Origin: Hydrurus foetidus
Taxonomy: Eukaryota
DNA: 37,478 nucleotides
Direction of reading: 5' to 3'
Assembly (NCBI GenBank): GCA_900617105.1
Contig: UYFQ01000230.1
Coordinates: forward strand, 1 to 37,478
Positions 2,289 through 27,587 of this stretch are shown one piece after another. Positions within the stretch are counted from its first letter, which is position 1; each line of letters starts with the position of its first letter. The position numbers and the translations under genes were made by a program. The notes below the pieces were generated by a model, which saw nothing but the letters and a program-made list of their open reading frames with translations, ran no database searches and was not told the origin of the DNA.

Positions 2289-2855
2289 GAGTTTGCAGGA
2301 CCTTCTCTCACTGCAATGCAAGGAGAAGATCATCCTGCCGACAACCCCAAAATATTTGACCCAGACAATACCATATCGACGGCTCTCATTGCTCAACTAG
2401 CGTCTGCAATCTCAGTTGATCCAAAAGACCTGTGCCACCCGTTTATTCGGCCAGGAACAATACGAAGTCCCGACGGATCCTCTACAATTATTTTCGATAA
2501 AGGTCTACTCGACACTGGCGCCCAAGGCAGCAACTTCATTTCAGAAGACCTGTACTCGCGTCTGCCGGCCATCATTACCAATTTATCGAGACCCATCGAT
2601 CGTGTTGTTCGACTAGGAGACGCACGACACCTCTTCATACAACTTGAGGTACCACTAAATGTCTCTATTACGGACTTCAATGGACAAGACCATGAACACA
2701 CTCTATGGTACAGCGTCCTTAAAGAACTTAGCCATGACATCATCATAGGACTTGTTGATCTCATCGGCCCTTTCTACACTCTGTTCGAAAACTCAGTTGC
2801 CACATCACGCCATACGCCAAGTCTCGTGATCTCGGTAGTCACCTATCCGCCTTGA
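2289..2855 (+). CDS. Retropepsin-type aspartic protease, in frame with gag after the UAG
   Basis: LLDTGAQGSNFIS active-site motif and downstream DIIIG motif; 2289-2315 is open in frame up to ATG 2316. Confidence 0.88.
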   Translation, partial: EFAGPSLTAMQGEDHPADNPKIFDPDNTISTALIAQLASAISVDPKDLCHPFIRPGTIRSPDGSSTIIFDKGLLDTGAQGSNFISEDLYSRLPAIITNLSRPIDRVVRLGDARHLFIQLEVPLNVSITDFNGQDHEHTLWYSVLKELSHDIIIGLVDLIGPFYTLFENSVATSRHTPSLVISVVTYPP

Positions 2856-5800
2856 CAACGACAATTATGACCTTAGCAACCAACGATCCAACTGACCATA
2901 TGATGCAGCAAACTTCTGAGGCAATCAAGTTGGAACACACTGTCTACAAGGATCGGAAACGTTCAATCCAATCCAGCGTGAATACAACTATTTCTCTCCT
3001 TGCTCTACAAGATGGCTCAACAGTTGAAACACTCCATCATCCTTTGCACGGCAACGTCTATGCTGACGAACGCATGGAAACAAGATACGACATCTTGACC
3101 TCACAATTATGCACCCCAACCCCAGGTCTTGTCATGACACCGTGGTCCAATCTGATTGATGCACTCGCTCCCGAGGAACTCGATACGCCTGACCCTACCA
3201 GTTTCCCGGATGACATACTCGGATATCTCGCTATGACTCCTGAAAGCACACGCGCAATTTACCGCGTCGATCTCGAGACCCATATCACAACTGAAATGCG
3301 AGAGGCTTGCCCGCATATAGTAGACCTACTGACATCAGAACTAGCATACGATGTGTTCGTACCGAGCACCTGGACTGGCATACGCATGGATCCATATCAT
3401 CTCGATACCAAACCCGGCCTTCCAGATCATATCAAAGCACATGCTCGACCAGTACGTGAAGCACTCTTTGAAGATGCTAGGACAGAATTCAATAGAATGC
3501 GGACATATTTCTACGAGAAGTCAACGTCACCAATTGCTTCGCCGCTAGTAATTGCTCCCAAAGCCACAGCCCCTTTCATTCGTATCTGTGGCGACTACCG
3601 TCCAATTAATCCTTACGTGAGCATCCCACAAGAACCGATCCCTCATGTGCAGCAATCACTCGCCAAAGCTGCTGGATGGAATGTATTCGTTGATCTAGAC
3701 ATGACCAACTCGTTCCATCAAATTCCAATCGACATTGCCAGCTCTAATCTCCTATCAGTATCTACACCGTGGGGCTTATTCAGACCAAAATTTTTGCCAG
3801 AGGGTGTCGGACCTGCGTCAGGCATACTGCAGTCAGTAGTACGCCGAGTATTTTCTGACTTCGAACAGTGGATCATCGTAATCTTCGACAACTTTCTGAT
3901 TCTGGCGTCCGACTATGCAGACGCTGCAGACAAGCTGGAGAAAGTGCTCATACGTTGTCAATTGCATCGGCTCGTACTCAAGATGAAAAAATCATGGATC
4001 GGCACCACTGTAGTCACATTCTTTGGCTACGAAGTGAGACCCGGATCTTGGAGTCTCTCCAACAGCCGTAAAGAGGCAATATCCAATATGATCTTCCCAG
4101 CAAACCAGAAGCAAATGCAAAGCTTCCTAGGTGCCGCCAACTTCTTTCACACTCATATCCCCAATTACGCACAGTGGGCATCGTGCTTGTATGAATGCAC
4201 TACAGCATCGTTTGATTGGAACCCCTCGACATGGACCAATGACTACAAAGATCTCTTCGCTATCTTCAAAACCGCGATAACAAATTCTGCAACACTCTAC
4301 TTCCCGGACTACTCTCTTCCATGGATCATTCGCTCAGATTCTTCGGATAACGCAGTCGGTGCAGTCCTGTTCCAGGAGTTCACGGACACGTCAAACAATA
4401 TTATTCATCAGCCAATAGCATTTGCATCACACAAGTACTCAGGCGCCGCCATCAATTGGGACACGTTCAAACAAGAGGCTTACGCTCTCTACTTTGCAGT
4501 GACACAGTTCTCATACTACTTACGTGGCAAACCGTTCGTCATCGAGACCGATCACCGCAACCTAGTTTGGATAGAATCGAGTTTAGTTCCTATTGTTATT
4601 CGCTGGCGAGTACTGTTGCAGAGCTACGTATTCGATATCAAACACATACCTGGCAAGCAGAAGATGGTCGCCGACTGGCTGTCGCGAATGCACCCTATAC
4701 CCGTTCCACTTCTCACAGCTATCACAGACTACCCACCTTTAAGCGAGATGTTCGCTGCTGTCCACGGCAATCGCTCCCTGCATCACGGTGCAAAGCGTAC
4801 GTATACTAAGTTGTGTTCCCGCTACCCTGGTCATGGCATTCCGATACGTGTTATACAAGACCTTGTATTTGAATGTCCAATATGTCAGAAGGATCGCATA
4901 CCTTTACAGCCCATCCCTCACGCTGAAGCACGGCAAACACTGATGCATCATGCTCGCACTATCGGAATGGATCACGTCACAGTGACACCCGCCGATGAGG
5001 ATGGCTATATCGGACTCCTGCTTGTAGTAGAATTTGACACGAAGTTCCCCCAAGCATATCCTGTCAGAGACTACGGTGCACTCACTGTCGCCACCGTGCT
5101 ATTCAAGCACTATTGTACGTTCGGTACATACAACGCTATCATATCTGATCCTAGCAGTGCCTTCACTGCAACAGTCGTGCAACATCTCAACACATGGTTC
5201 GGCATACCGCATCATATCTCTGTAGTTGGACGACATGAGTCAAACGGAACCGAACATGTCAATGCTCTATTCATCGGCCACCTCCGTCGACTCGTCCACG
5301 ATCAACGGATGACTAACCGCTGGGCCTCGGACACAATACTCCCCCTTATCAATCATGCCATGTCGACGATGCCAAATTCCGATGCCTATTCACCGCATGA
5401 TCTCAAATTTGGAACAGTCGATAAGCAGCACTTTCGGTTACCGACAGCTCTGCCTCCTGGAAATTCATACGCGGAATTCATCAATACATTGAATGAGAAT
5501 TTGTCAACAATACGTGCCATTACAAGCCAATATCAACTCGAACTACGTACCAGGCGACAACTTGAGAATCCCGCTGCCAGTCAAAACCTGTATCAAGCCG
5601 GTGATCTCATACTATGGAATCCGAGAGAACATTCGAAGTCCTTCAGGTCGTCAAAACTAGCTCCAAAATTACTGGGACCCTTCGTTGTGTTGACTCAGAA
5701 GAAGAACGATGTTACGTGTGAGCATATACAATCAAAAGAAATTCGTGTGTTTCACGCATCTCGCATCTCTCCCTACATTGGTTCACACACATCAGCAGCA

Positions 5801-6028
5801 GATGCTAGTCTACTGGATTCAGTGGAATATATTGTCGAGTCAATAACAGCACATCGAGGATCATGGACATCACTTACCTCACTCGAGTTCCTTGTACACT
5901 GGCTTGGATATCCAACCGAAGACGACACTTGGGAACCATACCGCAATCTTCGTCATCTTGATGCCCTCCACGAGTACCTGCGAAAAAATAATAAAGAGAG
6001 TCTAATACCAAATATCCACCGGAACTAG
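2852..6028 (+). CDS. pol: Pol: reverse transcriptase, RNase H, integrase, GPF motif and chromodomain (frameshifted relative to PR)
   Basis: RT: RICGDYRPIN, DLDMTNSFHQI, LPEG, IFDN, FFGY. RH: SDSS, EAYA, TDHRNL, ADWLSR. IN: H..H..CPIC, MDH, SDP, TEH. LLGPF. Chromodomain YIVESI...FLVHWLGY...TWEP. Confidence 0.95.
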   Translation: MTTTIMTLATNDPTDHMMQQTSEAIKLEHTVYKDRKRSIQSSVNTTISLLALQDGSTVETLHHPLHGNVYADERMETRYDILTSQLCTPTPGLVMTPWSNLIDALAPEELDTPDPTSFPDDILGYLAMTPESTRAIYRVDLETHITTEMREACPHIVDLLTSELAYDVFVPSTWTGIRMDPYHLDTKPGLPDHIKAHARPVREALFEDARTEFNRMRTYFYEKSTSPIASPLVIAPKATAPFIRICGDYRPINPYVSIPQEPIPHVQQSLAKAAGWNVFVDLDMTNSFHQIPIDIASSNLLSVSTPWGLFRPKFLPEGVGPASGILQSVVRRVFSDFEQWIIVIFDNFLILASDYADAADKLEKVLIRCQLHRLVLKMKKSWIGTTVVTFFGYEVRPGSWSLSNSRKEAISNMIFPANQKQMQSFLGAANFFHTHIPNYAQWASCLYECTTASFDWNPSTWTNDYKDLFAIFKTAITNSATLYFPDYSLPWIIRSDSSDNAVGAVLFQEFTDTSNNIIHQPIAFASHKYSGAAINWDTFKQEAYALYFAVTQFSYYLRGKPFVIETDHRNLVWIESSLVPIVIRWRVLLQSYVFDIKHIPGKQKMVADWLSRMHPIPVPLLTAITDYPPLSEMFAAVHGNRSLHHGAKRTYTKLCSRYPGHGIPIRVIQDLVFECPICQKDRIPLQPIPHAEARQTLMHHARTIGMDHVTVTPADEDGYIGLLLVVEFDTKFPQAYPVRDYGALTVATVLFKHYCTFGTYNAIISDPSSAFTATVVQHLNTWFGIPHHISVVGRHESNGTEHVNALFIGHLRRLVHDQRMTNRWASDTILPLINHAMSTMPNSDAYSPHDLKFGTVDKQHFRLPTALPPGNSYAEFINTLNENLSTIRAITSQYQLELRTRRQLENPAASQNLYQAGDLILWNPREHSKSFRSSKLAPKLLGPFVVLTQKKNDVTCEHIQSKEIRVFHASRISPYIGSHTSAADASLLDSVEYIVESITAHRGSWTSLTSLEFLVHWLGYPTEDDTWEPYRNLRHLDALHEYLRKNNKESLIPNIHRN

Positions 6029-6161
6029 TTTCTCCACGATGTATACTGATCGTGGCCAGGTATCACAAACTGCTGACCGCTCAATGTAACATGGTACGAG
6101 ACCACTATGTGAGGACGTCCTTAGAAAGTGGGTAACCCCTGCAAAAACAACTATTTAAAAA

Positions 6162-6842
6162 TTATTTCCCCAAAGGGATCGAACCCGAGGGGGGAGTCGA
6201 ACCCGGAGGTTGAGATGCCTTCTTCCACCCCTTCTTGTACAAATCAAAGAAGAAACAATACGTCAAATCAGCCATTTTATCTGCCAAGTTCTCCACAGTA
6301 AATTCAACACTACCAGCAGTACATGCATTGTCAAATAATCTCACTCCGTTTTCATCACTCCGTATACTGACTGCGTGATCATGCCTGCTGTACCCTGTCG
6401 CTTTCTTGCTATAAGTCTCCACTTTGTCCTCCACGCCTTCCGCTTTCCCTATCCTCTTTAACAAAGCTTTGTGTTCTGCGTTCTTCAATTTTGATTTGCC
6501 GAACAAAATGTATATACCCTTGTTCGCCAGCACTGTCTTGATCAATGATTTCACGCACCAGCACCTGTCTTTGTCCACTCTGCCAATCACCCTACGGAAC
6601 TCGAACTTCAACTTTCTGCCCATCTTCCTATTCTGTACACACACATGCTTCAAAAAATTCAACGCGTCATGCGATGATGCTCCGTAATGTAGTTTACTTG
6701 TGACATCGACAGCAATTGAATTCTTGTACACATCACCAGCATCACCACCCAATCGAATCCAATCCTGCTTTTCGCTCGACAATGGCAATACCATTGCTGC
6801 TGCCAGGCATAAGTTCTTTGATGGCCTGAAGTCGTCTGTCAT
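6162..6842 (-). CDS. Antisense accessory ORF (226 aa), putative papain-like (C39-like) cysteine peptidase fold
   Basis: Open ORF between pol and the 3' LTR; NLC(12)LAAA, GASSHD, GIYILFG, H(156)AVSI, LFD(171)N pattern. Function inferred from motifs only. Confidence 0.6.
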   Translation of the reverse strand: MTDDFRPSKNLCLAAAMVLPLSSEKQDWIRLGGDAGDVYKNSIAVDVTSKLHYGASSHDALNFLKHVCVQNRKMGRKLKFEFRRVIGRVDKDRCWCVKSLIKTVLANKGIYILFGKSKLKNAEHKALLKRIGKAEGVEDKVETYSKKATGYSRHDHAVSIRSDENGVRLFDNACTAGSVEFTVENLADKMADLTYCFFFDLYKKGWKKASQPPGSTPPSGSIPLGK

Positions 6843-7239
6843 GTTCTATACTTGTGTTGTGCTTGTCATGTAGTATATATCCTGCACCATCACACAGCCA
6901 TCAATTTATCAATGGTTATCACGGCGGCACCATCAATTTTAAAAAAATCTTTTAGAGCCACACATGCCGCCCCACACGACATGCGGAGACTCCGGTTTCG
7001 CTTTTCCAAGGACTCACCATGTGTACACAGTTTTGTGGTAGAGCGCCTATCCTTCCCACCACATTTTGGCGCGCCAAGAGGTCTGCGGTTCAAACCCAGC
7101 TTTTTCATCCACCTATCGTTTTCGCAATTACTGCACTATGTAGCTTCTTTAGCGGTACATTTCTTCATGCGAAGTCTCAGAGATGTAGCAGAGGACTTTG
7201 TATTCATTTATTTGACATCCACAATTTGACATTTCACAT

Positions 7240-7251
7240 GGAGAGGGGTGG
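7240..7251 (+). other. Polypurine tract (GGAGAGGGGTGG)
   Basis: Purine-rich tract immediately 5' of the 3' LTR. Confidence 0.88.
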
Positions 7252-7560
7252 TGTTATAGTTTCCACTATGTATATATAACACGTACGTACGCACGTTGCT
7301 CACAACCACAAGTTTTTCATTCCAGTTTTCTGTTTCTGATTCTTAGATTGCTTCAACTCGTGATGCACTCGTTGCCTGTCAATCTCACTCACTTTTCATC
7401 GCTTTAAAACTTTAACTGAAACACCTATACCGATACGGCTTCTCTTAGCCATCTCCGCTATTCTGGACTGACTTTCTTGTCAGCTAGAAGATCTTCGTCT
7501 CCTGCTTTCTTGCAGAACGAATCACCGCTTTTAGTCACTTCACGACGTGCAACCGGCATA
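7252..7560 (+). repeat. 3' LTR of Gypsy element
   Basis: Identical to 67-375; preceded by the PPT and followed by the ATTT TSD. Confidence 0.95.
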
Positions 7561-7564
7561 ATTT
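7561..7564. repeat. Target site duplication ATTT (right copy)
   Basis: Matches 63-66. Confidence 0.8.
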
Positions 7565-9487
7565 TCCTTCGCCGATGTGGCAAGGCTCATCGACATCATG
7601 TCTGCTAAGATCCAACAGCCTCCACCGTTGGTCTCCCAACCGAAATCAACAGTTGGATCTGCCTCTATTCCAAGTGCTTCAACGCCCAAGGCTTCTTCTA
7701 TCTTATCGGTGCCCATATCAGAATACTTGGATACCACCTCTGCGCAATCGAAATTCTTCTTTTCGATGCCCAAGTTTTCCAACTCTGGGAAGGACAACCG
7801 CGACAACATGGAAATGTTCATGGTCGCTCTAGGTGAATGTAAACTTCTTACATTAGCCAAATGCGATCGTGAGTTACCAGTCATTACTGCTCGGAACCCT
7901 GGAGGGTATTCACCTAGGTCACTGGTATTAGCAGAAGAAGGATTGTATGATGTCATCCCAGCTGATGACATCTACAAAAGATTACACGATTTGGATCGAT
8001 TATTAGTTATCCTCAATATGGTTACTGGGAAAGATCTACATTATTTGATCAAGCGTGTGATTGCCGACAACGATGCGGTCTTATGGTTCAAGACTATCTA
8101 CGATCACATCAACGGCACAAAGAACAGCGACATCAGGAAGGCAACGGATCAGCTCCACTCCCTGAAGCTTAAGTCCACACAAACCATTCAGGAGAATGTG
8201 GCAACCATCGAAGAGGCCTTCAGAGTCCTCAAAGTCGCAAGTGGCGTGCTCGTCACTGATGATCAAAAGCTTTATCATCTACAGGAAAAGCTGGAGCATG
8301 ATGCAAGATTCAGCGTCTTATCAATCATGGCCTCATCAAAGACATCAAAGGCATCCTATGACGACACCATCAAATACCTTGTGCTTCTTGATCCTGCCCC
8401 AGCGGTAGTTCACAAGATGGCTTCCCTTACTCCAACCTTGGAGCTGTGCAGACGTCACATCGCTGGCCCATGTACCAACGGTTCCTCATGCAAGTATTCA
8501 CATGCAGCAGCGCCGCCAAACAAGGGAGCACCATCTGACAAGAAGCCCAACAAGAACCCGCCTCCTCTCAAGAAAGATCAGAAGACTCCACAGAAGTTTC
8601 CTTTCAAGAAACCAATCATCGTGTCAGATTCCCATCGATCACTTGTTGGTTATCCCAAAGGAGTTGCAACGGCAAAGAACCCAGCTGGATACTCATTGAA
8701 CCAACTTACAACCATCAGGACTTTGCAATCTGCTGATGTTGACGGCTGGACTACAGGAGATCCTCAGTATTTCAATGGCGATGGGTCGAGCAACCATATC
8801 GATCGGTTCAATGTTCTTCGCTTCAAGGAACAATCAACGACATCCATTGCTGAGTTCCCAGAGTTCTACCACCTTGAGCCCTTTCCAAGACTTCGTGAGA
8901 TCAGACGTCACCTGTTCACAATGCTCAACTCGGTCGAGAAGTATAACAGATTCGCCGGTTCATCTCCCAGCGACTACGATGGATCTCCTACTGATCCTCT
9001 CTCCGGAATTGTTGTCAGCTTCCAAGACCTGACAGCAGCTGAACCAAGGATGGTACACATCTTGGTGGCATTCACATGGCTTTCAGAGAGCCCAACCATC
9101 TCGAGATCCGTGAAAATCCGAGAAGATGTTCGTACAGCAGACAAACGGCTTATGAGGATGCTATACAAAATCGGAAACAGATTCTTGAACGCCGACGTGT
9201 TGATTCCAGACAGGGAGGGTTCCGAAAATTTCAGTTATATGAACTTCAACCCTCTCTCCGACAAATTCTATCATTCCGACGACTATGAGTTCTACCAATC
9301 AAACATGAGAAACGTGGAAAAGTACTTTGTTGCTATCAGATACATCATGGAGCATCCTGACATTCCATGGCGACTTCTACGTATTCTCTCTTTGGCTATT
9401 ATCTACGACTTTATGTCATTCTGCGCTCACTACTTCATGATGCAGTGCAATTGCAAGCTGACGAATCCCAGACAAGAGCAAATGTGA
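7565..9487 (+). CDS. gag: Copia-1 Gag continuation with CCCH finger, followed by an unknown domain; frameshifted in the first repeat unit
   Basis: 636-aa ORF from 7577; helical capsid-like region (DQLHSLK...EEAFRVL...DDQKLYHL); C-x7-C-x5-C-x3-H at 8447-8503; homologous to Copia-2 Gag. Confidence 0.8.
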   Translation, partial: SFADVARLIDIMSAKIQQPPPLVSQPKSTVGSASIPSASTPKASSILSVPISEYLDTTSAQSKFFFSMPKFSNSGKDNRDNMEMFMVALGECKLLTLAKCDRELPVITARNPGGYSPRSLVLAEEGLYDVIPADDIYKRLHDLDRLLVILNMVTGKDLHYLIKRVIADNDAVLWFKTIYDHINGTKNSDIRKATDQLHSLKLKSTQTIQENVATIEEAFRVLKVASGVLVTDDQKLYHLQEKLEHDARFSVLSIMASSKTSKASYDDTIKYLVLLDPAPAVVHKMASLTPTLELCRRHIAGPCTNGSSCKYSHAAAPPNKGAPSDKKPNKNPPPLKKDQKTPQKFPFKKPIIVSDSHRSLVGYPKGVATAKNPAGYSLNQLTTIRTLQSADVDGWTTGDPQYFNGDGSSNHIDRFNVLRFKEQSTTSIAEFPEFYHLEPFPRLREIRRHLFTMLNSVEKYNRFAGSSPSDYDGSPTDPLSGIVVSFQDLTAAEPRMVHILVAFTWLSESPTISRSVKIREDVRTADKRLMRMLYKIGNRFLNADVLIPDREGSENFSYMNFNPLSDKFYHSDDYEFYQSNMRNVEKYFVAIRYIMEHPDIPWRLLRILSLAIIYDFMSFCAHYFMMQCNCKLTNPRQEQM

Positions 9488-12400
9488 TATTCACATTGAA
9501 TACATATCGATCCAACGCACAGTTCTTGGATCAGATAGTCTTCCACGATGCTTTTTCTGCAGTCATCAACAACATCAAACCAATGCCTCCAGCACCACAG
9601 TCTTATGCATTGCAGACAAGCCCAATCACGACATCATATTCACGTATGAGTGCCATCAACAGAGAGGACCTGCTTAGTGAGACGACTGACCACACTGAAG
9701 AAAATGACATTCCATGGCGACTTCTACGTATTCTCTCTTTGGCTATTATCTACGACTTTATGTCATTCTGCGCTCAACTACTTCATGATGCAGTGCAAAT
9801 GCAAGCTGACGAATCCCAGACAAGAGCAAATGTGATATTCACATTGAATACATATCGATCCAACGCACAGTTCTTGGATCAGATAGTCTTCCACGATGCT
9901 TTTTCTGCAGTCATCAACAACATCAAACCAATGCCTCCAGCACCACAGTCTTATGCATTGCAGACAAGCCCAATCACGACATCATATTCACGTATGAGTG
10001 CCATCAACAGAGAGGACCTGCTTAGTGAGACGACTGACCACACTGAAGAAAATGACATTCCATGGCGACTTCTACGTATTCTCTCTTTGGCTATTATCTA
10101 CGACTTTATGTCATTCTGCGCTCACTACTTCATGATGCAGTGCAAATGCAAGCTGACGAATCCCAGACAAGAGCAAATGTGATATTCACATTGAATACAT
10201 ATCGATCCAACGCACAGTTCTTGGATCAGATAGTCTTCCACGATGCTTTTTCTGCAGTCATCAACAACATCAAACCAATGCCTCCAGCACCACAGTCTTA
10301 TGCATTGCAGACAAGCCCAATCACGACATCATATTCACGTATGAGTGCCATCAACAGAGAGGACCTGCTTAGTGAGACGACTGACCACACTGAAGAAAAT
10401 GACATTCCATGGCGACTTCTACGTATTCTCTCTTTGGCTATTATCTACGACTTTATGTCATTCTGCGCTCAACTACTTCATGATGCAGTGCAATTGCAAG
10501 CTGACGAATCCCAGACAAGAGCAAATGTGATATTCACATTGAATACATATCGATCCAACGCACAGTTCTTGGATCAGATAGTCTTCCACGATGCTTTTTC
10601 TGCAGTCATCAACAACATCAAACCAATGCCTCCAGCACCACAGTCTTATGCATTGCAGACAAGCCCAATCACGACATCATATTCACGTATGAGTGCCATC
10701 AACAGAGAGGACCTGCTTAGTGAGACGACTGACCACACTGAAGAAAATGACATTCCATGGCGACTTCTACGTATTCTCTCTTTGGCTATTATCTACGACT
10801 TTATGTCATTCTGCGCTCAACTACTTCATGATGCAGTGCAAATGCAAGCTGACGAATCCCAGACAAGAGCAAATGTGATATTCACATTGAATACATATCG
10901 ATCCAACGCACAGTTCTTGGATCAGATAGTCTTCCACGATGCTTTTTCTGCAGTCATCAACAACATCAAACCAATGCCTCCAGCACCACAGTCTTATGCA
11001 TTGCAGACAAGCCCAATCACGACATCATATTCACGTATGAGTGCCATCAACAGAGAGGACCTGCTTAGTGAGACGACTGACCACACTGAAGAAAATGACA
11101 TTCCATGGCGACTTCTACGTATTCTCTCTTTGGCTATTATCTACGACTTTATGTCATTCTGCGCTCAACTACTTCATGATGCAGTGCAAATGCAAGCTGA
11201 CGAATCCCAGACAAGAGCAAATGTGATATTCACATTGAATACATATCGATCCAACGCACAGTTCTTGGATCAGATAGTCTTCCACGATGCTTTTTCTGCA
11301 ATCATCAACAACATCAAACCAATGCCTCCAGCACCACAGTCTTATGCATTGCAGACAAGCCCAATCACGACATCATATTCACGTATGAGTGCCATCAACA
11401 GAGAGGACCTGCTTAGTGAGACGACTGACCACACTGAAGAAAATGACATTCCATGGCGACTTCTACGTATTCTCTCTTTGGCTATTATCTACGACTTTAT
11501 GTCATTCTGCGCTCAACTACTTCATGATGCAGTGCAAATGCAAGCTGACGAATCCCAGACAAGAGCAAATGTGATATTCACATTGAATACATATCGATCC
11601 AACGCACAGTTCTTGGATCAGATAGTCTTCCACGATGCTTTTTCTGCAGTCATCAACAACATCAAACCAATGCCTCCAGCACCACAGTCTTATGCATTGC
11701 AGACAAGCCCAATCACGACATCATATTCACGTATGAGTGCCATCAACAGAGAGGACCTGCTTAGTGAGACGACTGACCACACTGAAGAAAATGACATTCC
11801 ATGGCGACTTCTACGTATTCTCTCTTTGGCTATTATCTACGACTTTATGTCATTCTGCGCTCAACTACTTCATGATGCAGTGCAAATGCAAGCTGACGAA
11901 TCCCAGACAAGAGCAAATGTGATATTCACATTGAATACATATCGATCCAACGCACAGTTCTTGGATCAGATAGTCTTCCACGATGCTTTTTCTGCAGTCA
12001 TCAACAACATCAAACCAATGCCTCCAGCACCACAGTCTTATGCATTGCAGACAAGCCCAATCACGACATCATATTCACGTATGAGTGCCATCAACAGAGA
12101 GGACCTGCTTAGTGAGACGACTGACCACACTGAAGAAAATGACATTCCATGGCGACTTCTACGTATTCTCTCTTTGGCTATTATCTACGACTTTATGTCA
12201 TTCTGCGCTCAACTACTTCATGATGCAGTGCAAATGCAAGCTGACGAATCCCAGACAAGAGCAAATGTGATATTCACATTGAATACATATCGATCCAACG
12301 CACAGTTCTTGGATCAGATAGTCTTCCACGATGCTTTTTCTGCAGTCATCAACAACATCAAACCAATGCCTCCAGCACCACAGTCTTATGCATTGCAGAC

Positions 12401-15400
12401 AAGCCCAATCACGACATCATATTCACGTATGAGTGCCATCAACAGAGAGGACCTGCTTAGTGAGACGACTGACCACACTGAAGAAAATGACATTCCATGG
12501 CGACTTCTACGTATTCTCTCTTTGGCTATTATCTACGACTTTATGTCATTCTGCGCTCAACTACTTCATGATGCAGTGCAAATGCAAGCTGACGAATCCC
12601 AGACAAGAGCAAATGTGATATTCACATTGAATACATATCGATCCAACGCACAGTTCTTGGATCAGATAGTCTTCCACGATGCTTTTTCTGCAGTCATCAA
12701 CAACATCAAACCAATGCCTCCAGCACCACAGTCTTATGCATTGCAGACAAGCCCAATCACGACATCATATTCACGTATGAGTGCCATCAACAGAGAGGAC
12801 CTGCTTAGTGAGACGACTGACCACACTGAAGAAAATGACATTCCATGGCGACTTCTACGTATTCTCTCTTTGGCTATTATCTACGACTTTATGTCATTCT
12901 GCGCTCACTACTTCATGATGCAGTGCAAATGCAAGCTGACGAATCCCAGACAAGAGCAAATGTGATATTCACATTGAATACATATCGATCCAACGCACAG
13001 TTCTTGGATCAGATAGTCTTCCACGATGCTTTTTCTGCAGTCATCAACAACATCAAACCAATGCCTCCAGCACCACAGTCTTATGCATTGCAGACAAGCC
13101 CAATCACGACATCATATTCACGTATGAGTGCCATCAACAGAGAGGACCTGCTTAGTGAGACGACTGACCACACTGAAGAAAATGACATTCCATGGCGACT
13201 TCTACGTATTCTCTCTTTGGCTATTATCTACGACTTTATGTCATTCTGCGCTCAACTACTTCATGATGCAGTGCAAATGCAAGCTGACGAATCCCAGACA
13301 AGAGCAAATGTGATATTCACATTGAATACATATCGATCCAACGCACAGTTCTTGGATCAGATAGTCTTCCACGATGCTTTTTCTGCAGTCATCAACAACA
13401 TCAAACCAATGCCTCCAGCACCACAGTCTTATGCATTGCAGACAAGCCCAATCACGACATCATATTCACGTATGAGTGCCATCAACAGAGAGGACCTGCT
13501 TAGTGAGACGACTGACCACACTGAAGAAAATGACATTCCATGGCGACTTCTACGTATTCTCTCTTTGGCTATTATCTACGACTTTATGTCATTCTGCGCT
13601 CAACTACTTCATGATGCAGTGCAAATGCAAGCTGACGAATCCCAGACAAGAGCAAATGTGATATTCACATTGAATACATATCGATCCAACGCACAGTTCT
13701 TGGATCAGATAGTCTTCCACGATGCTTTTTCTGCAGTCATCAACAACATCAAACCAATGCCTCCAGCACCACAGTCTTATGCATTGCAGACAAGCCCAAT
13801 CACGACATCATATTCACGTATGAGTGCCATCAACAGAGAGGACCTGCTTAGTGAGACGACTGACCACACTGAAGAAAATGACATTCCATGGCGACTTCTA
13901 CGTATTCTCTCTTTGGCTATTATCTACGACTTTATGTCATTCTGAGCTCAACTACTTCATGATGCAGTGCAAATGCAAGCTGACGAATCCCAGACAAGAG
14001 CAAATGTGATATTCACATTGAATACATATCGATCCAACGCACAGTTCTTGGATCAGATAGTCTTCCACGATGCTTTTCTGCAGTCATCAACAACATCAAA
14101 CCAATGCCTCCAGCACCACAGTCTTATGCATTGCAGACAAGCCCAATCACGACATCATATTCACGTATGAGTGCCATCAACAGAGAGGACCTGCTTAGTG
14201 AGACGACTGACCACACTGAAGAAAATGACATTCCATGGCGACTTCTACGTATTCTCTCTTTGGCTATTATCTACGACTTTATGTCATTCTGAGCTCAACT
14301 ACTTCATGATGCAGTGCAAATGCAAGCTGACGAATCCCAGACAAGAGCAAATGTGATATTCACATTGAATACATATCGATCCAACGCACAGTTCTTGGAT
14401 CAGATAGTCTTCCACGATGCTTTTTCTGCAGTCATCAACAACATCAAACCAATGCCTCCAGCACCACAGTCTTATGCATTGCAGACAAGCCCAATCACGA
14501 CATCATATTCACGTATGAGTGCCATCAACAGAGAGGACCTGCTTAGTGAGACGACTGACCACACTGAAGAAAATGACATTCCATGGCGACTTCTACGTAT
14601 TCTCTCTTTGGCTATTATCTACGACTTTATGTCATTCTGCGCTCAACTACTTCATGATGCAGTGCAAATGCAAGCTGACGAATCCCAGACAAGAGCAAAT
14701 GTGATATTCACATTGAATACATATCGATCCAACGCACAGTTCTTGGATCAGATAGTCTTCCACGATGCTTTTTCTGCAGTCATCAACAACATCAAACCAA
14801 TGCCTCCAGCACCACAGTCTTATGCATTGCAGACAAGCCCAATCACGACATCATATTCACGTATGAGTGCCATCAACAGAGAGGACCTGCTTAGTGAGAC
14901 GACTGACCACACTGAAGAAAATGACATTCCATGGCGACTTCTACGTATTCTCTCTTTGGCTATTATCTACGACTTTATGTCATTCTGCGCTCAACTACTT
15001 CATGATGCAGTGCAAATGCAAGCTGACGAATCCCAGACAAGAGCAAATGTGATATTCACATTGAATACATATCGATCCAACGCACAGTTCTTGGATCAGA
15101 TAGTCTTCCACGATGCTTTTTCTGCAGTCATCAACAACATCAAACCAATGCCTCCAGCACCACAGTCTTATGCATTGCAGACAAGCCCAATCACGACATC
15201 ATATTCACGTATGAGTGCCATCAACAGAGAGGACCTGCTTAGTGAGACGACTGACCACACTGAAGAAAATGACATTCCATGGCGACTTCTACGTATTCTC
15301 TCTTTGGCTATTATCTACGACTTTATGTCATTCTGCGCTCAACTACTTCATGATGCAGTGCAAATGCAAGCTGACGAATCCCAGACAAGAGCAAATGTGA

Positions 15401-18400
15401 TATTCACATTGAATACATATCGATCCAACGCACAGTTCTTGGATCAGATAGTCTTCCACGATGCTTTTTCTGCAGTCATCAACAACATCAAACCAATGCC
15501 TCCAGCACCACAGTCTTATGCATTGCAGACAAGCCCAATCACGACATCATATTCACGTATGAGTGCCATCAACAGAGAGGACCTGCTTAGTGAGACGACT
15601 GACCACACTGAAGAAAATGACATTCCATGGCGACTTCTACGTATTCTCTCTTTGGCTATTATCTACGACTTTATGTCATTCTGCGCTCAACTACTTCATG
15701 ATGCAGTGCAAATGCAAGCTGACGAATCCCAGACAAGAGCAAATGTGATATTCACATTGAATACATATCGATCCAACGCACAGTTCTTGGATCAGATAGT
15801 CTTCCACGATGCTTTTTCTGCAGTCATCAACAACATCAAACCAATGCCTCCAGCACCACAGTCTTATGCATTGCAGACAAGCCCAATCACGACATCATAT
15901 TCACGTATGAGTGCCATCAACAGAGAGGACCTGCTTAGTGAGACGACTGACCACACTGAAGAAAATGACATTCCATGGCGACTTCTACGTATTCTCTCTT
16001 TGGCTATTATCTACGACTTTATGTCATTCTGCGCTCAACTACTTCATGATGCAGTGCAAATGCAAGCTGACGAATCCCAGACAAGAGCAAATGTGATATT
16101 CACATTGAATACATATCGATCCAACGCACAGTTCTTGGATCAGATAGTCTTCCACGATGCTTTTTCTGCAGTCATCAACAACATCAAACCAATGCCTCCA
16201 GCACCACAGTCTTATGCATTGCAGACAAGCCCAATCACGACATCATATTCACGTATGAGTGCCATCAACAGAGAGGACCTGCTTAGTGAGACGACTGACC
16301 ACACTGAAGAAAATGACATTCCATGGCGACTTCTACGTATTCTCTCTTTGGCTATTATCTACGACTTTATGTCATTCTGCGCTCAACTACTTCATGATGC
16401 AGTGCAAATGCAAGCTGACGAATCCCAGACAAGAGCAAATGTGATATTCACATTGAATACATATCGATCCAACGCACAGTTCTTGGATCAGATAGTCTTC
16501 CACGATGCTTTTTCTGCAGTCATCAACAACATCAAACCAATGCCTCCAGCACCACAGTCTTATGCATTGCAGACAAGCCCAATCACGACATCATATTCAC
16601 GTATGAGTGCCATCAACAGAGAGGACCTGCTTAGTGAGACGACTGACCACACTGAAGAAAATGACATTCCATGGCGACTTCTACGTATTCTCTCTTTGGC
16701 TATTATCTACGACTTTATGTCATTCTGAGCTCAACTACTTCATGATGCAGTGCAAATGCAAGCTGACGAATCCCAGACAAGAGCAAATGTGATATTCACA
16801 TTGAATACATATCGATCCAACGCACAGTTCTTGGATCAGATAGTCTTCCACGATGCTTTTTCTGCAGTCATCAACAACATCAAACCAATGCCTCCAGCAC
16901 CACAGTCTTATGCATTGCAGACAAGCCCAATCACGACATCATATTCACGTATGAGTGCCATCAACAGAGAGGACCTGCTTAGTGAGACGACTGACCACAC
17001 TGAAGAAAATGACATTCCATGGCGACTTCTACGTATTCTCTCTTTGGCTATTATCTACGACTTTATGTCATTCTGCGCTCAACTACTTCATGATGCAGTG
17101 CAAATGCAAGCTGACGAATCCCAGACAAGAGCAAATGTGATATTCACATTGAATACATATCGATCCAACGCACAGTTCTTGGATCAGATAGTCTTCCACG
17201 ATGCTTTTTCTGCAGTCATCAACAACATCAAACCAATGCCTCCAGCACCACAGTCTTATGCATTGCAGACAAGCCCAATCACGACATCATATTCACGTAT
17301 GAGTGCCATCAACAGAGAGGACCTGCTTAGTGAGACGACTGACCACACTGAAGAAAATGACATTCCATGGCGACTTCTACGTATTCTCTCTTTGGCTATT
17401 ATCTACGACTTTATGTCATTCTGCGCTCAACTACTTCATGATGCAGTGCAAATGCAAGCTGACGAATCCCAGACAAGAGCAAATGTGATATTCACATTGA
17501 ATACATATCGATCCAACGCACAGTTCTTGGATCAGATAGTCTTCCACGATGCTTTTTCTGCAGTCATCAACAACATCAAACCAATGCCTCCAGCACCACA
17601 GTCTTATGCATTGCAGACAAGCCCAATCACGACATCATATTCACGTATGAGTGCCATCAACAGAGAGGACCTGCTTAGTGAGACGACTGACCACACTGAA
17701 GAAAATGACATTCCATGGCGACTTCTACGTATTCTCTCTTTGGCTATTATCTACGACTTTATGTCATTCTGCGCTCACTACTTCATGATGCAGTGCAAAT
17801 GCAAGCTGACGAATCCCAGACAAGAGCAAATGTGATATTCACATTGAATACATATCGATCCAACGCACAGTTCTTGGATCAGATAGTCTTCCACGATGCT
17901 TTTTCTGCAGTCATCAACAACATCAAACCAATGCCTCCAGCACCACAGTCTTATGCATTGCAGACAAGCCCAATCACGACATCATATTCACGTATGAGTG
18001 CCATCAACAGAGAGGACCTGCTTAGTGAGACGACTGACCACACTGAAGAAAATGACATTCCATGGCGACTTCTACGTATTCTCTCTTTGGCTATTATCTA
18101 CGACTTTATGTCATTCTGCGCTCACTACTTCATGATGCAGTGCAAATGCAAGCTGACGAATCCCAGACAAGAGCAAATGTGATATTCACATTGAATACAT
18201 ATCGATCCAACGCACAGTTCTTGGATCAGATAGTCTTCCACGATGCTTTTTCTGCAATCATCAACAACATCAAACCAATGCCTCCAGCACCACAGTCTTA
18301 TGCATTGCAGACAAGCCCAATCACGACATCATATTCACGTATGAGTGCCATCAACAGAGAGGACCTGCTTAGTGAGACGACTGACCACACTGAAGAAAAT

Positions 18401-21400
18401 GACATTCCATGGCGACTTCTACGTATTCTCTCTTTGGCTATTATCTACGACTTTATGTCATTCTGCGCTCACTACTTCATGATGCAGTGCAAATGCAAGC
18501 TGACGAATCCCAGACAAGAGCAAATGTGATATTCACATTGAATACATATCGATCCAACGCACAGTTCTTGGATCAGATAGTCTTCCACGATGCTTTTCTG
18601 CAGTCATCAACAACATCAAACCAATGCCTCCAGCACCACAGTCTTATGCATTGCAGACAAGCCCAATCACGACATCATATTCACGTATGAGTGCCATCAA
18701 CAGAGAGGACCTGCTTAGTGAGACGACTGACCACACTGAAGAAAATGACATTCCATGGCGACTTCTACGTATTCTCTCTTTGGCTATTATCTACGACTTT
18801 ATGTCATTCTGCGCTCAACTACTTCATGATGCAGTGCAAATGCAAGCTGACGAATCCCAGACAAGAGCAAATGTGATATTCACATTGAATACATATCGAT
18901 CCAACGCACAGTTCTTGGATCAGATAGTCTTCCACGATGCTTTTTCTGCAGTCATCAACAACATCAAACCAATGCCTCCAGCACCACAGTCTTATGCATT
19001 GCAGACAAGCCCAATCACGACATCATATTCACGTATGAGTGCCATCAACAGAGAGGACCTGCTTAGTGAGACGACTGACCACACTGAAGAAAATGACATT
19101 CCATGGCGACTTCTACGTATTCTCTCTTTGGCTATTATCTACGACTTTATGTCATTCTGCGCTCAACTACTTCATGATGCAGTGCAAATGCAAGCTGACG
19201 AATCCCAGACAAGAGCAAATGTGATATTCACATTGAATACATATCGATCCAACGCACAGTTCTTGGATCAGATAGTCTTCCACGATGCTTTTTCTGCAGT
19301 CATCAACAACATCAAACCAATGCCTCCAGCACCACAGTCTTATGCATTGCAGACAAGCCCAATCACGACATCATATTCACGTATGAGTGCCATCAACAGA
19401 GAGGACCTGCTTAGTGAGACGACTGACCACACTGAAGAAAATGACATTCCATGGCGACTTCTACGTATTCTCTCTTTGGCTATTATCTACGACTTTATGT
19501 CATTCTGCGCTCAACTACTTCATGATGCAGTGCAAATGCAAGCTGACGAATCCCAGACAAGAGCAAATGTGATATTCACATTGAATACATATCGATCCAA
19601 CGCACAGTTCTTGGATCAGATAGTCTTCCACGATGCTTTTTCTGCAGTCATCAACAACATCAAACCAATGCCTCCAGCACCACAGTCTTATGCATTGCAG
19701 ACAAGCCCAATCACGACATCATATTCACGTATGAGTGCCATCAACAGAGAGGACCTGCTTAGTGAGACGACTGACCACACTGAAGAAAATGACATTCCAT
19801 GGCGACTTCTACGTATTCTCTCTTTGGCTATTATCTACGACTTTATGTCATTCTGCGCTCAACTACTTCATGATGCAGTGCAAATGCAAGCTGACGAATC
19901 CCAGACAAGAGCAAATGTGATATTCACATTGAATACATATCGATCCAACGCACAGTTCTTGGATCAGATAGTCTTCCACGATGCTTTTTCTGCAGTCATC
20001 AACAACATCAAACCAATGCCTCCAGCACCACAGTCTTATGCATTGCAGACAAGCCCAATCACGACATCATATTCACGTATGAGTGCCATCAACAGAGAGG
20101 ACCTGCTTAGTGAGACGACTGACCACACTGAAGAAAATGACATTCCATGGCGACTTCTACGTATTCTCTCTTTGGCTATTATCTACGACTTTATGTCATT
20201 CTGCGCTCAACTACTTCATGATGCAGTGCAAATGCAAGCTGACGAATCCCAGACAAGAGCAAATGTGATATTCACATTGAATACATATCGATCCAACGCA
20301 CAGTTCTTGGATCAGATAGTCTTCCACGATGCTTTTTCTGCAGTCATCAACAACATCAAACCAATGCCTCCAGCACCACAGTCTTATGCATTGCAGACAA
20401 GCCCAATCACGACATCATATTCACGTATGAGTGCCATCAACAGAGAGGACCTGCTTAGTGAGACGACTGACCACACTGAAGAAAATGACATTCCATGGCG
20501 ACTTCTACGTATTCTCTCTTTGGCTATTATCTACGACTTTATGTCATTCTGCGCTCACTACTTCATGATGCAGTGCAAATGCAAGCTGACGAATCCCAGA
20601 CAAGAGCAAATGTGATATTCACATTGAATACATATCGATCCAACGCACAGTTCTTGGATCAGATAGTCTTCCACGATGCTTTTTCTGCAGTCATCAACAA
20701 CATCAAACCAATGCCTCCAGCACCACAGTCTTATGCATTGCAGACAAGCCCAATCACGACATCATATTCACGTATGAGTGCCATCAACAGAGAGGACCTG
20801 CTTAGTGAGACGACTGACCACACTGAAGAAAATGACATTCCATGGCGACTTCTACGTATTCTCTCTTTGGCTATTATCTACGACTTTATGTCATTCTGCG
20901 CTCACTACTTCATGATGCAGTGCAAATGCAAGCTGACGAATCCCAGACAAGAGCAAATGTGATATTCACATTGAATACATATCGATCCAACGCACAGTTC
21001 TTGGATCAGATAGTCTTCCACGATGCTTTTTCTGCAGTCATCAACAACATCAAACCAATGCCTCCAGCACCACAGTCTTATGCATTGCAGACAAGCCCAA
21101 TCACGACATCATATTCACGTATGAGTGCCATCAACAGAGAGGACCTGCTTAGTGAGACGACTGACCACACTGAAGAAAATGACATTCCATGGCGACTTCT
21201 ACGTATTCTCTCTTTGGCTATTATCTACGACTTTATGTCATTCTGCGCTCAACTACTTCATGATGCAGTGCAAATGCAAGCTGACGAATCCCAGACAAGA
21301 GCAAATGTGATATTCACATTGAATACATATCGATCCAACGCACAGTTCTTGGATCAGATAGTCTTCCACGATGCTTTTTCTGCAGTCATCAACAACATCA

Positions 21401-21876
21401 AACCAATGCCTCCAGCACCACAGTCTTATGCATTGCAGACAAGCCCAATCACGACATCATATTCACGTATGAGTGCCATCAACAGAGAGGACCTGCTTAG
21501 TGAGACGACTGACCACACTGAAGAAAATGACATTCCATGGCGACTTCTACGTATTCTCTCTTTGGCTATTATCTACGACTTTATGTCATTCTGCGCTCAA
21601 CTACTTCGTGATGCAGTGCAAATGCAAGCTGACGAATCCCAGACAAGAGCAAATGTGATATTCACATTGAATACATATCGATCCAACGCACAGTTCTTGG
21701 ATCAGATAGTCTTCCACGATGCTTTTTCTGCAATCATCAACAACATCAAACCAATGCCTCCAGCACCACAGTCTTATGCATTGCAGACAAGCCCAATCAC
21801 GACATCATATTCACGTATGAGTGCCATCAACAGAGAGGACCTGCTCAGTGAGACGACTGACCACACTGAAGAAAAT
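9359..21876 (+). repeat. Tandem array of 36 near-identical 348-bp units derived from the Copia-1 coding region
   Basis: Unit GACATTCCATGG...GAAGAAAAT. 12518 bp = 36x348 minus 10 single-base deletions. Unit = 116 codons, giving repetitive ORFs up to 967 aa. Confidence 0.97.
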
Positions 21877-22233
21877 GATGATGACAATGATGATGATGAT
21901 GACGATGAATACAGTGACGATGAATCAGAGGGTGATGACATAGACATGACTCCACCGGGATCATCATCTGATCATCACAGGAGATGCCAAGAAGACCTGA
22001 CCCGATACAATCACCCATACCTTATGGGTCATAAACGCAGTCTATGGGCGTCAATCCACACTGATACCAAGCGTCCAGCACGCAGGAAGATTACCAAAAC
22101 ATCAGATGACAATGAGTTCAAGGAGACACCGGGAACATCCAGCTCAATGCATGCTCCACCAATGCTTCAAGACCATCTCTTGTTAATGATGATATTGTTC
22201 CAGCACTTAAGACTGCTGGTGTACCTCGTATGA
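21877..22233 (+). pseudogene. Copia-1 polyprotein acidic/disordered linker after the array, with a frameshift near 22100-22170
   Basis: DDDNDDDDDDEYSDDESE tract continues the array frame; the -1 frame (…STNASRPSLVNDDIVPALK…) is open into the ORF at 22230. Confidence 0.6.
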
Positions 22234-22895
22234 TTGCACCAGTCCAATATCCAGTCAATGAGGAAGAGCAGCAGACATTGCAACTGGAGCATCCTCCCAT
22301 GGCATTCGACTCTCAGCAATCTACACAAGATATTTTGCATCCTCCAATGGCAGATCTGGCAACCCCTGAGCCATATCGAATGCGCGCTCCACCAGCCATA
22401 TCGCCATCAAGGGATTCAGTGTCTGCCACACGTCGTGCAAAAGCAAGAGCACTGGCTGAGAAAAAGAGTCTCAACTTACTTACAGTTACAGACAAAGATA
22501 GCAAATTCATGTCATTCAAGAAGACAAGTCACAAGACAGTTATTGACAGTGGTGCATCTACATCTAGTACTGGATTGCGCAGCAGCCTCCGTGACCTTAG
22601 ACCTACATCATGCAGTGTCTCAGCAGCTTTCGGGGAGACTGCCCAGCCTACTGAGATGGGACTACTCCCACCATTCATGCTCAAGACTATTGTCATCGAC
22701 CAAATGAATGATACCACACTGCTCTCAGTGTCTCAAGCGTGTGCAAAGGGATTTGTGGGCATCTTCACCTCTAAGGACTGCAAGTTCTTTAATGCGATAG
22801 ATGTCATCCCACACCTTCAGACAATTTCAAAGACAGCTCACCCAGTTATGAGTGGCAAGGTAGAGGAAGGCCTCTACTTGCTTGACTCTAACTGA
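22230..22895 (+). CDS. Copia-1 aspartic protease region
   Basis: VIDSGAS active site; LLSVSQ and G..EEGLYLLD motifs typical of the Copia PR region. Confidence 0.88.
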   Translation: MIAPVQYPVNEEEQQTLQLEHPPMAFDSQQSTQDILHPPMADLATPEPYRMRAPPAISPSRDSVSATRRAKARALAEKKSLNLLTVTDKDSKFMSFKKTSHKTVIDSGASTSSTGLRSSLRDLRPTSCSVSAAFGETAQPTEMGLLPPFMLKTIVIDQMNDTTLLSVSQACAKGFVGIFTSKDCKFFNAIDVIPHLQTISKTAHPVMSGKVEEGLYLLDSN

Positions 22896-24272
22896 GTGCA
22901 ACCGGCTCAACTCTTGGTCACGAGTGTAAAGGAGCTTTCGATTTACGACCACGTGCATCGCGTACTAGGACACCCTGGCGAAGAGGGTATGGCCTGGCAC
23001 CGACAGCACACCATAGGAGCACACTACTCCAACTTGGATGCATCTACACCAAGACCAATATGCGCAGCATGCGTACAGGGTACGATGCGACAGACCTCTA
23101 CGGACCATCTTCGTATACACCGTTTGCCATCTCCTTGCTACGGCAGTCAATTCTCACTTGACGCGTATACACATACACACCGGTCACAGGCCGGTTATAA
23201 GTACTGCGATATCATCACGGACTTATCTACAAGACGAAGTTATCCATGCTTCACGAAAGACCGGGGAGCTGCAGAACTTGTTAAAAGCTTCTCCACCCTC
23301 TTCCAATCACATCCTGAGTGGAAGCCCTCGCTTCCAGGCGTAGACCGATTCATCAGAGCCGATGCAGAGAAATCTTATCGGTCAGCTGAATTCCTTCAAT
23401 GCCTACACAACTTTGGATATCGACTTGAGCCAACACCACCTCGCGACAAACATGCAAATGGAATCGCAGAACGTGCAGTAGGCGTCTTATCGATGAAGTG
23501 CAACATCACCATGCAACCTTTAGGGATGACAGTACCACAGAAGTTTTGGGATCTTGCCTTTGAGTATACATGCATCACCCATGCATTCAATTACCATTCA
23601 GCAATCAAGACATCACTGTATCATCTCATCACTGGAAAGCATGTAATCCTCAAGAACCTCAAGGCCTTTTGGAGCTTATGTTGGGTTCACATCGCGCTTG
23701 AAGATAGGAAAGGTAAAATCGGTTTTCCTCGTGCATACAAAGCCAGATTCGTTGGTTACGATTTATCAAGAACGCTCGAGCCTTGTTTTAAGGTAATCGA
23801 AATACTACCAACCGGAATCTTCGGCAAAATTAGGACAAGTAAGGACGTCATTTTCGACAAAGACAATAATTATAATTACACGGACGAGTACCCATCCGAT
23901 CTTGATTTTTCTAATTTACACCAGAATATCAATAATGATAGCTCTGCAGTCCTACCAGCTAACAAGGTAGTTGAAAAAGATTCTGAACAACAACTAGCAA
24001 CTCCAGCTATTCCAATACACCCTGTACCTGTAATACCTTGCATTATTCAGAATCGAACTCCTGAAAATCCTATTCCAGTGAATAATAATCCAAATGTCAT
24101 TAACAATAACAAAAATGTTAATAAATCTGGATCGACTAATATCAAATCAACAAAACAGAATATACCGTTTGATCCAACACCAATTAGAGATACAAATAAC
24201 AAATCCGACATCGATGATAATGACATTTGTCAGCTTATATCAGCGATAAGTGCTATTTATAGCTGTATATAG
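22896..24272 (+). CDS. Copia-1 integrase (GAG-pre-integrase HHCC plus DDE core), truncated by Copia-2 LTR at 24228
   Basis: HRVLGH...CAAC; SLDAY, RADAEKSY, NGIAERAV; FWDLA; ARFVGY; SKDVIFD. In frame with PR across TGA 22893-22895. Confidence 0.92.
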   Translation: MQPAQLLVTSVKELSIYDHVHRVLGHPGEEGMAWHRQHTIGAHYSNLDASTPRPICAACVQGTMRQTSTDHLRIHRLPSPCYGSQFSLDAYTHTHRSQAGYKYCDIITDLSTRRSYPCFTKDRGAAELVKSFSTLFQSHPEWKPSLPGVDRFIRADAEKSYRSAEFLQCLHNFGYRLEPTPPRDKHANGIAERAVGVLSMKCNITMQPLGMTVPQKFWDLAFEYTCITHAFNYHSAIKTSLYHLITGKHVILKNLKAFWSLCWVHIALEDRKGKIGFPRAYKARFVGYDLSRTLEPCFKVIEILPTGIFGKIRTSKDVIFDKDNNYNYTDEYPSDLDFSNLHQNINNDSSAVLPANKVVEKDSEQQLATPAIPIHPVPVIPCIIQNRTPENPIPVNNNPNVINNNKNVNKSGSTNIKSTKQNIPFDPTPIRDTNNKSDIDDNDICQLISAISAIYSCI

Positions 24273-24744
24273 CCGTTATAATCATCAATATGTAGCTAGG
24301 AATATCTCATACGTAAGTACATATATGCAGTCCGTAACTACATACAATGATCACTTTAAGTCGCTTCCTCAATGCTTATCGTATCATGTGTAGTGTCATT
24401 GTTGTGGGTTCATGACCGCATATTTAGTATAGATTCCAGATTTTATGGTATGAGGGTACGAGAACTTTTCCATGTGTGATGTATGGTTTGAAGTATATCT
24501 CGTCGCTCGTCAACGTAGGCTTAAATCTACGAGTTCAAATTCAAATCTGAAATGGATGACGAATGAGATCTTATTGACTTGCGGCAGGTAGAATGATGTT
24601 CATCATGCAACGTCTTTTCAATTCGCATGTGTTTAGTTTCTAATTCTTAACGAATATTCGATACTCAACTCCCAAACTTCTTCGCCTGGTCGCTTGTGCT
24701 ATTGGCCTCCTGCGACCTCATTGATCGTCCCTGATCAACTGACA
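24228..24744 (+). repeat. Copia-2 5' LTR, full length (517 bp)
   Basis: Terminal inverted repeats TGTCAG...CTGACA, directly followed by a TGG PBS and gag. Confidence 0.82.
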
Positions 24745-24753
24745 TGGTAGCGA
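24745..24753 (+). other. Primer binding site TGGTAGCGA, initiator tRNA-Met-like; repeated at 27834, 30905, 33975, 37333
   Basis: TGG immediately after the LTR-terminal CA; TGGTAGC matches the 3' end GCUACCA typical of eukaryotic tRNAiMet. Confidence 0.75.
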
Positions 24754-24801
24754 TTGAAGCCTGAAGACTTCAAAGATAAGTTACCCGATTCCCCGACCAA
24801 A

Positions 24802-27062: not shown

Positions 27063-27587
27063 AGATAGGAAAGGAAAAATCGGTTTTCCTCGTGCATACA
27101 AAGCCAGATTCGTTGGTTACGATTTATCGAGAACGCTCGAGCCTTGTTTTAAGGTAATCGAAATACTACCAACCGGAATCTTCGGCAAAATTAGGACAAG
27201 TAAGGACGTCATTTTCGACAAAGACAATAATTATAATTACACGGACGAGTACCCATCCGATCTTGATTTTTCTAATTTACACCAGAATATCAATAATGAT
27301 AGCTCTGCAGTCCTACCAGCTAACAAGGTAGTTGAAAAGATTCTGAACAACAACTAGCAACTCCAGCTATTCCAATACACCCTGTACCTGTAATACCTTG
27401 CATTATTCAGAATCGAACTCCTGAAAATCCTATTCCAGTGAATAATAATCCAAATGTCATTAACAATAACAAAAATGTTAATAAATCTGGATCGACTAAT
27501 ATCAAATCAACAAAACAGAATATACCGTTTGATCCAACACCAATTAGAGATACAAATAACAAATCCGACATCGATGATAATGACATT
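27008..27587 (+). pseudogene. Duplicated Copia-1 integrase C-terminal fragment
   Basis: Near-identical to 23647-24227. Confidence 0.85.

Follow-up and report, generated by a model that had tools for sequence, protein, structure and literature searches.

A 348-base tandem array of Copia gag sequence in a Hydrurus foetidus contig, a probable recent amplification in place within a nest of dead retrotransposons

How does a single-copy stretch of DNA become a tandem array? The question is open, since mature satellites have lost their founding junction. Here we analyse a 37,478-nt window (the whole of the stretch under study; contig UYFQ01000230.1, positions 1 to 37,478 of the forward strand, assembly GCA_900617105.1 of Hydrurus foetidus) in which a 348-base segment from the gag coding sequence of a Copia long terminal repeat (LTR) retrotransposon, here termed Copia-1, is present 36 times in tandem. 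The array is known here from the assembled contig alone. We read it, with a probability of roughly 0.55, as a real, neutral and very recent amplification in situ within a nest of dead retrotransposons. We favour this reading because a parent protein exists (P0185) that holds a single unit with both flanks, because the array comprises a whole number of units with a three-base overlap at its ends, because the host copy has decayed on both sides, and because the nested deletions of a second array in the window are not what an assembler invents.

The repetition is far beyond chance: Tandem Repeats Finder returned a period of 348 with 36.0 copies and 99% matches at 9358–21878 (score 24902). The array itself occupies 9359–21876 on the plus strand, with 36 unit starts, the first at 9359 and the last at 21529. 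Twenty-seven units are 348 bases long, eight are 347 and one is 346, giving a total of 12,518 bases, 10 fewer than 36 × 348. Seven of the 348 columns are variable, yielding 10 distinct unit types, and 22 of the 36 units are identical. Within units 1–35, the mean substitution difference is 0.11%. The original prediction, made from the sequence alone, of 36 near-identical units of 348 bp is thus borne out. As DNA, the unit folds no better than its shuffles (z = −0.58), and the window holds no inverted repeats of at least 40 bases.

The unit derives from the C-terminal region of the Copia-1 Gag, between a CCCH finger and the protease. It is carried by 44 of 253 stored proteins, with one hit in each; the initial unit search gave 13 matches among 91 candidates of 204–2000 aa, and the rest came through cluster members and further searches. 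The holders stem from biofilm, sediment, freshwater, air and glacier metagenomes and from organism A. Single-unit Copia-1 relatives, which the original prediction had proposed to look for, do exist (P0185, P0002 and P0008). P0185 is a 1162-aa Copia Gag-protease in which the unit spans residues 708–823, with IMEHP before it and DDDNDD after it; the sequences at the array edges (...MEHP|DIPW on the left, ...TEEN|DDDND on the right) are as originally described. The left native flank (7565–9358, plus strand), encoding gag with the CCCH-type zinc finger (zf-CCCH below the Pfam cut-off, E = 0.0025), is 98.2% identical to P0185 over 622 aa. The right native flank (21877–22895, plus strand) encodes an acidic linker and an aspartic protease (DSGAS); its frame shifts near 22170 and meets an in-frame TGA at 22893–22895. 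The Copia-1 integrase follows (22896–24227, plus strand; SH3-like domain PF25597, E = 8.6e-08), is cut at 24227 and is 97.9% identical to residues 1–425 of P0207. The host element is assigned to Copia because P0207 continues from integrase into a PF07727 RVT_2 reverse transcriptase (RT), which is absent from the window; the Ty1/Copia domain order is represented by gag, protease and integrase in the window and by RVT_2 through P0207. In the assembly, the monomer is therefore wholly element sequence that is single in other copies, and the claim that retrotransposon coding sequence was amplified in situ stands, with Copia Gag sequence between native flanks and P0185 as parent.

The host copy is dead: a Gypsy element lies in its gag, its RT has been cut off by a second Copia element, and private changes are found throughout. 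Counted over columns with at least four relatives of at least 80% identity, private residues number 6 of 560 in the left flank, 7 of 331 in the right flank and 5 of 381 in the integrase, against 2 of 116 in the main unit type and 0 of 116 in unit 36. The family as a whole is high-copy and diverse, with 3035–5880 contigs per run on 1 kb in four public runs (organism A and a biofilm metagenome). The two ends of Copia-1 fall beyond the window. Two scans of metagenome contigs for family loci returned nothing.

The last unit differs from all others. Unit 36 (21529–21876, plus strand) departs from the other units at about 3 of 348 sites, around eight times the spread within units 1–35. It is the sole unit with family-type alleles at unit positions 80 and 318, and at position 205 it shares the family allele with two further units. 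The polarity of these alleles rests on proteins and on allele tables from short-read contigs. At unit codon 27, 32 of 33 relatives have R and none has H; at codon 69, 28 of 31 have I and none has V. Unit 36 has R and I at these codons, whereas the main unit type has H and V. Since relatives side with unit 36 at both codons, it is the amplified type that has acquired changes, whereas the last unit has kept the ancestral state there. The window allele at 9562 agrees with the protein polarity, making up 2.43, 0.83, 0.79 and 0.04% of depth in the four public runs. Depth in these runs is no measure of copy number, and their strain may be a different one; the depth of array-type relative to flank-private alleles was inconsistent across them (about 11–22-fold in X1, whereas X3 and X4 had no depth at all for several flank alleles), and we draw nothing from it. 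Alleles common in the family at other unit positions (for example at 9555, 85–94% of depth) occur in 0 of 36 units, which argues against polishing by reads from other copies. The split between unit 36 and units 1–35, a feature new to this analysis, suggests a seed dimer followed by a burst. Unit 36 may descend from an old self-duplication or from a second family copy; its count of 0 in 116 private residues is not clearly below the 1–2% of the flanks. The description 'caught at birth' needs a qualifier, given how far unit 36 stands from the rest.

How might the array have arisen? The trinucleotide TGA lies at both array ends (9358–9360 and 21876–21878, plus strand), as originally noted; it recurs at every unit–unit junction, and an acidic GAT-rich tract follows the right-hand copy. 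This overlap gives mild support to joining at short homology. In the likeliest sequence of events, a seed dimer would have formed by joining at the three-base TGA overlap, with this copy alone or two copies of the family taking part, and the two units of the dimer would have been 3 of 348 sites apart by the time of the burst. A short burst would then have multiplied one unit type: most likely, a 348-base circle released from the dimer would have been copied as a rolling circle and would have re-entered by homology, while the terminal unit 36 would have remained tied to its flank. This agrees with the originally proposed course of microhomology-seeded duplication and subsequent expansion, which we retain as the most plausible route, with less weight on the microhomology itself. 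We slightly favour rolling-circle copying over repeated unequal sister exchange, given 22 identical units, the lack of a higher-order period and the absence from units 1–35 of any change confined to a single unit. The higher-order repeat structure expected from unequal exchange was absent from the 36-unit array in a lag permutation test. An eight-unit period was considered and rejected (lag 8 alone gave p = 0.044 before correction for 29 lags), and shared variants were dropped as proof of unequal exchange because most sit in error-prone contexts.

Although the unit spans 116 codons, the original claim that the frame is preserved fails: nine units are short, unit 1 has a frameshift, the left and right flanks are mutually out of frame, and 11 of the 36 units are broken, leaving 25 that are full-length and stop-free. 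Three units have an in-frame TGA. Unit 1 (9359–9705, plus strand; 347 bases) has lost one base at unit position 71, and the parent open reading frame (ORF; 7562–9487) ends within it. Of the long ORFs originally listed, those of 967 and 663 aa are correct, whereas the one given as 804 aa measures 802 aa from its first Met; the 967-aa ORF begins at an out-of-frame ATG and reaches the unit frame via a deletion. Since gag is interrupted upstream, the long ORFs would have no path from promoter to start. Some frame breaks may be sequencing errors. All four substitutions that are variable or private in units 1–35 alter or stop a codon (three replacements, R to H, I to V and M to L, and one nonsense change), and the single silent change is in unit 36. 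We found no sign that the frame is kept by selection: the host copy was already dead, all four substitutions are non-silent, and a unit length divisible by three is a one-in-three event that the units of the neighbouring array do not share. The long ORFs are by-products of a unit whose length happens to be divisible by three.

Three further observations concern the Copia-1 copy. The interval 8700–9705 (approximately P0185 residues 520–790) encodes a conserved region of about 270 residues, not of low complexity, between the CCCH finger and the protease, and the unit covers its end. Neither Pfam nor the Atlas offered a credible match to this interval, nothing usable came from the ESM Atlas for the region of the unit, and structure prediction of the domain gave no usable fold (mean pLDDT 31.9, 10 sequences); Fibulin_C was rejected as a sub-threshold Pfam match (E = 0.079). 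At 9155–9181 there are five changes in 27 bases, each window letter being rare in the four runs, possibly a patch from a divergent family member. The in-frame TGA at 22893–22895, between protease and integrase, is the point at which 15 of 18 aligned stored relatives end (down to 39% local identity) and three continue; judged by sequence comparison, it is likely to be a programmed read-through site. In Candida Tca2, the stop codon lies at another position, between gag and pol.

The surroundings include a Gypsy insertion in gag, a Copia-2 insertion and a second array, none of which featured in the original prediction. Upstream, Copia-1 gag runs off the window edge (1–66, plus strand; P0185 residues 88–112) and is interrupted by a chromodomain Ty3/Gypsy element at 67–7560 (plus strand) with identical LTRs (67–375 and 7252–7560) and a four-base target duplication, ATTT. 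This element is very young, its 309-base LTRs being identical, and the LTRs end in TA rather than CA. An in-frame TAG at 2286–2288 separates its gag from its protease, and the frame changes near 2770–2850. Between its integrase and 3′ LTR, an antisense ORF of 227 codons (6162–6845, minus strand) has no Pfam match at E 0.1. Downstream, a Copia-2 5′ LTR (24228–24744, plus strand; TGTCAG...CTGACA), followed by TGG resembling a primer-binding site, is inserted in the Copia-1 integrase tail; its start at 24228 is the exact stop of the P0207 match.

The second tandem array (23647–37478, plus strand) begins 1.8 kb from the first, with four units of 3361, 3089, 3070 and 3070 bases, after which the window ends within a fifth; none of these lengths is divisible by three. 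Its unit is a chimera of Copia-1 integrase tail, Copia-2 LTR and a gag-like ORF. A 271-base deletion is present in copies 2–4, so that the full LTR is found in copies 1 and 5 only, and an 18-base deletion is present in copies 3–4. Copies 1–4 are 7–12 substitutions apart over about 3070 bases. The last copy (36237–37478) has 18 private substitutions in 1244 columns, which may reflect thin coverage at the contig end or an older copy. The second array is independent of the 348-base array. Given three nested elements and this second array, the site is likely to be heterochromatin prone to tandem amplification.

Several observations weigh against a real amplification, and most of them also bear on the main rival reading, that the array is a product of assembly, to which we give appreciably less credence. 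In that case a real junction, whether from a short dimer, from a 348-base circle or from a longer array at another site, would have produced a loop in the assembly graph that was unrolled arbitrarily or exited through another family copy, making either the count of 36 or the right flank wrong. Repeats make up 72% of the window, exceeding the 70% at which long-read contigs of less than 50 kb are flagged as suspect, and unsupported tandem repeats have been reported in long-read metagenome contigs (both in 10.1101/2025.04.22.649783); the family is, moreover, high-copy. Within units 1–35, there are five recurrent variable sites, four of which are in a short run or at CpG, and no unit among the 35 has a change of its own. 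The recurrent variants also lack spatial order (the best lag score was matched by 56% of 20,000 shuffles, p = 0.56). This is the pattern that systematic consensus errors would give, and it does not prove that the units have really evolved. Nanopore consensus can retain systematic errors at modified bases and runs (PMC6591954), so the variants among units 1–35, should the contig rest on such data, may not be real. An overlap of at least three bases occurs in about 6% of random duplications of 250–450 bases drawn from the flanking Copia sequence, and the joint of unit end to unit start was listed in none of the four public runs, a weak negative as contigs only were covered and the unit end falls at the edge of the stretch. 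Unit 36 is closer to the family than to its neighbours, and the change to family-type alleles occurs within about 110 bases around the last junction, as a misjoin to another copy would also give; the private substitutions at the right end of the window may likewise signal thin coverage. Against an assembly product, the right flank has private changes like the left and is therefore not a family consensus, unit 1 adjoins a flank and yet is not drawn to family alleles, and the nested deletions of the second array look biological. A loop, moreover, requires the junction to be present in reads, so at least a dimer or a circle would be real.

The remaining explanations accept the array and differ on its origin or role. 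An incipient centromeric or nucleosome-phased satellite, with 348 bases favoured as a fit to two nucleosomes and the array in centromeric chromatin, is improbable. The nested LTR elements, the chromodomain Gypsy element and the two arrays do suggest heterochromatin, and retrotransposon-derived arrays of Lathyrus expand mainly near centromeres (PMC7004042), with potato and maize cases cited in PMC3648361. However, the original suggestion that 348 bp is about two nucleosome repeats finds no echo in the unit, which has no 174-base substructure (self-similarity 0.27 against a mean of 0.257, s.d. 0.025) and no excess of 10–11-base A/T periodicity (its score was matched by 34 of 80 control windows), and the 3.1–3.4-kb units of the adjacent array argue against any length preference. 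The unit depth of 0.70–1.30 times that of the flank in the four runs, which is not a copy number, shows no large genome-wide satellite, and with one 12.5-kb array and an array-type allele at 0.04–2.43% of depth in runs possibly of another strain, the word 'satellite' overstates the case. Still less probable is a tandem made during retrotransposition, by template switching between co-packaged RNAs, and inserted ready-made. A switch at TGA between two copies would give exactly a dimer of unlike units and may explain the seed, and the same route has been hypothesised for the internal repeats of Ogre elements (PMC7004042). A 12.5-kb insert, however, would more than double the element; units 1–35 differ by 0.11% against 1–2% private residues in the flanks, placing the burst later than the insertion; and none of the 44 relatives has two units. 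The least probable proposal is a functional repeat protein, with the array held in frame to encode a long repetitive Gag-derived polypeptide. The open units and long ORFs speak for it, and some frameshifts may be errors, but the Gypsy insertion lies upstream in gag, the frame is already broken in unit 1, the substitutions in units 1–35 fall on residues conserved in relatives or create a stop with none silent, and no multi-unit protein occurs among the 91 candidates. Neither a continuous frame from a start codon nor purifying selection, both expected of a functional repeat gene, was found.

The recent amplification in place therefore remains our preferred account. If confirmed by reads, the locus would preserve parent and junction together with both flanks and a last unit in which ancestral alleles persist, and amplification in one step by rolling circle could be tested directly against stepwise unequal exchange on single molecules; if refuted, it would show cleanly how convincing a false array can look in a long-read metagenome contig. 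A broader and rather unlikely proposition concerns an unstudied eukaryote of cold fresh water in which a nest of LTR retrotransposons would be a hot spot, repeatedly turning arbitrary segments, coding sequence included, into arrays. Were it true, two arrays at different stages, with readable parents, junctions and an unconverted terminal unit, would provide a time-ordered record from seed dimer to rolling-circle burst and would show the start of centromere-type repeats outside plants and animals.

We compared the locus with known systems as the cited sources describe them. There is precedent for arrays that arise from nested retrotransposons and start at short homologies (PMC3648361). The maize CRM1TR and CRM4TR repeats are, like the array here, local arrays derived wholly from an LTR retrotransposon, with nested insertions and a proposed short-homology start, and the figure of their model uses the trinucleotides TGA and GAT (PMC3648361). 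They differ in deriving from the LTR and untranslated region (UTR) of Gypsy centromeric elements and in having begun 1–4 million years ago (PMC3648361); of the two arrays in the window, the second, which includes an LTR, is the closest to them. By contrast, the 348-base array consists purely of internal Copia coding sequence, is about 0.1% diverged and has both parental flanks in place. Gong et al. are said to have reported in 2012 that potato centromeric repeats were amplified from retrotransposon-related sequence. These are also young arrays with long monomers from dispersed repeats, although their monomers measure 979 bases to 5.4 kb and extend across centromere cores backed by CENH3 evidence (as cited in both PMC3648361 and PMC7004042), whereas the array here is known by sequence alone.

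The Ogre satellites of Lathyrus sativus resemble the locus in that arrays have grown inside an LTR element with element flanks still attached; many element copies already had short tandem repeats in their 3′ UTR, from which these arrays expanded, and single reads showed them (PMC7004042), whereas the parent here has one non-repeated unit and the array is seen in an assembly. Rye E3900 and other ORF-derived satellites likewise have gag-like coding sequence in the monomer (cited in PMC9659126 and PMC3648361), but are mature and high-copy with rearranged monomers, where here a single 12.5-kb array retains a readable founding junction. According to a review, satellites can be drawn from every part of an element (PMC9659126). 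A literature search, with subscription papers and supplements outside its scope, found no case of an in-situ Copia array of coding sequence with both flanks, which does not prove that there is none. Long-read metagenome contigs with excess repeats share with ours a length below 50 kb, a repeat content of at least 70% and near-identical tandem copies, their mean identities being 88–96% and many being circular (10.1101/2025.04.22.649783); ours differs in its unique flanks, in a register that matches an independent parent and in a second array with nested deletions. By analogy with these systems, the array appears to work like known retrotransposon-derived arrays, gag-derived ones included, and would be no new kind of element; it would be of value as what may be an early stage, its junction still legible and a second array next to it.

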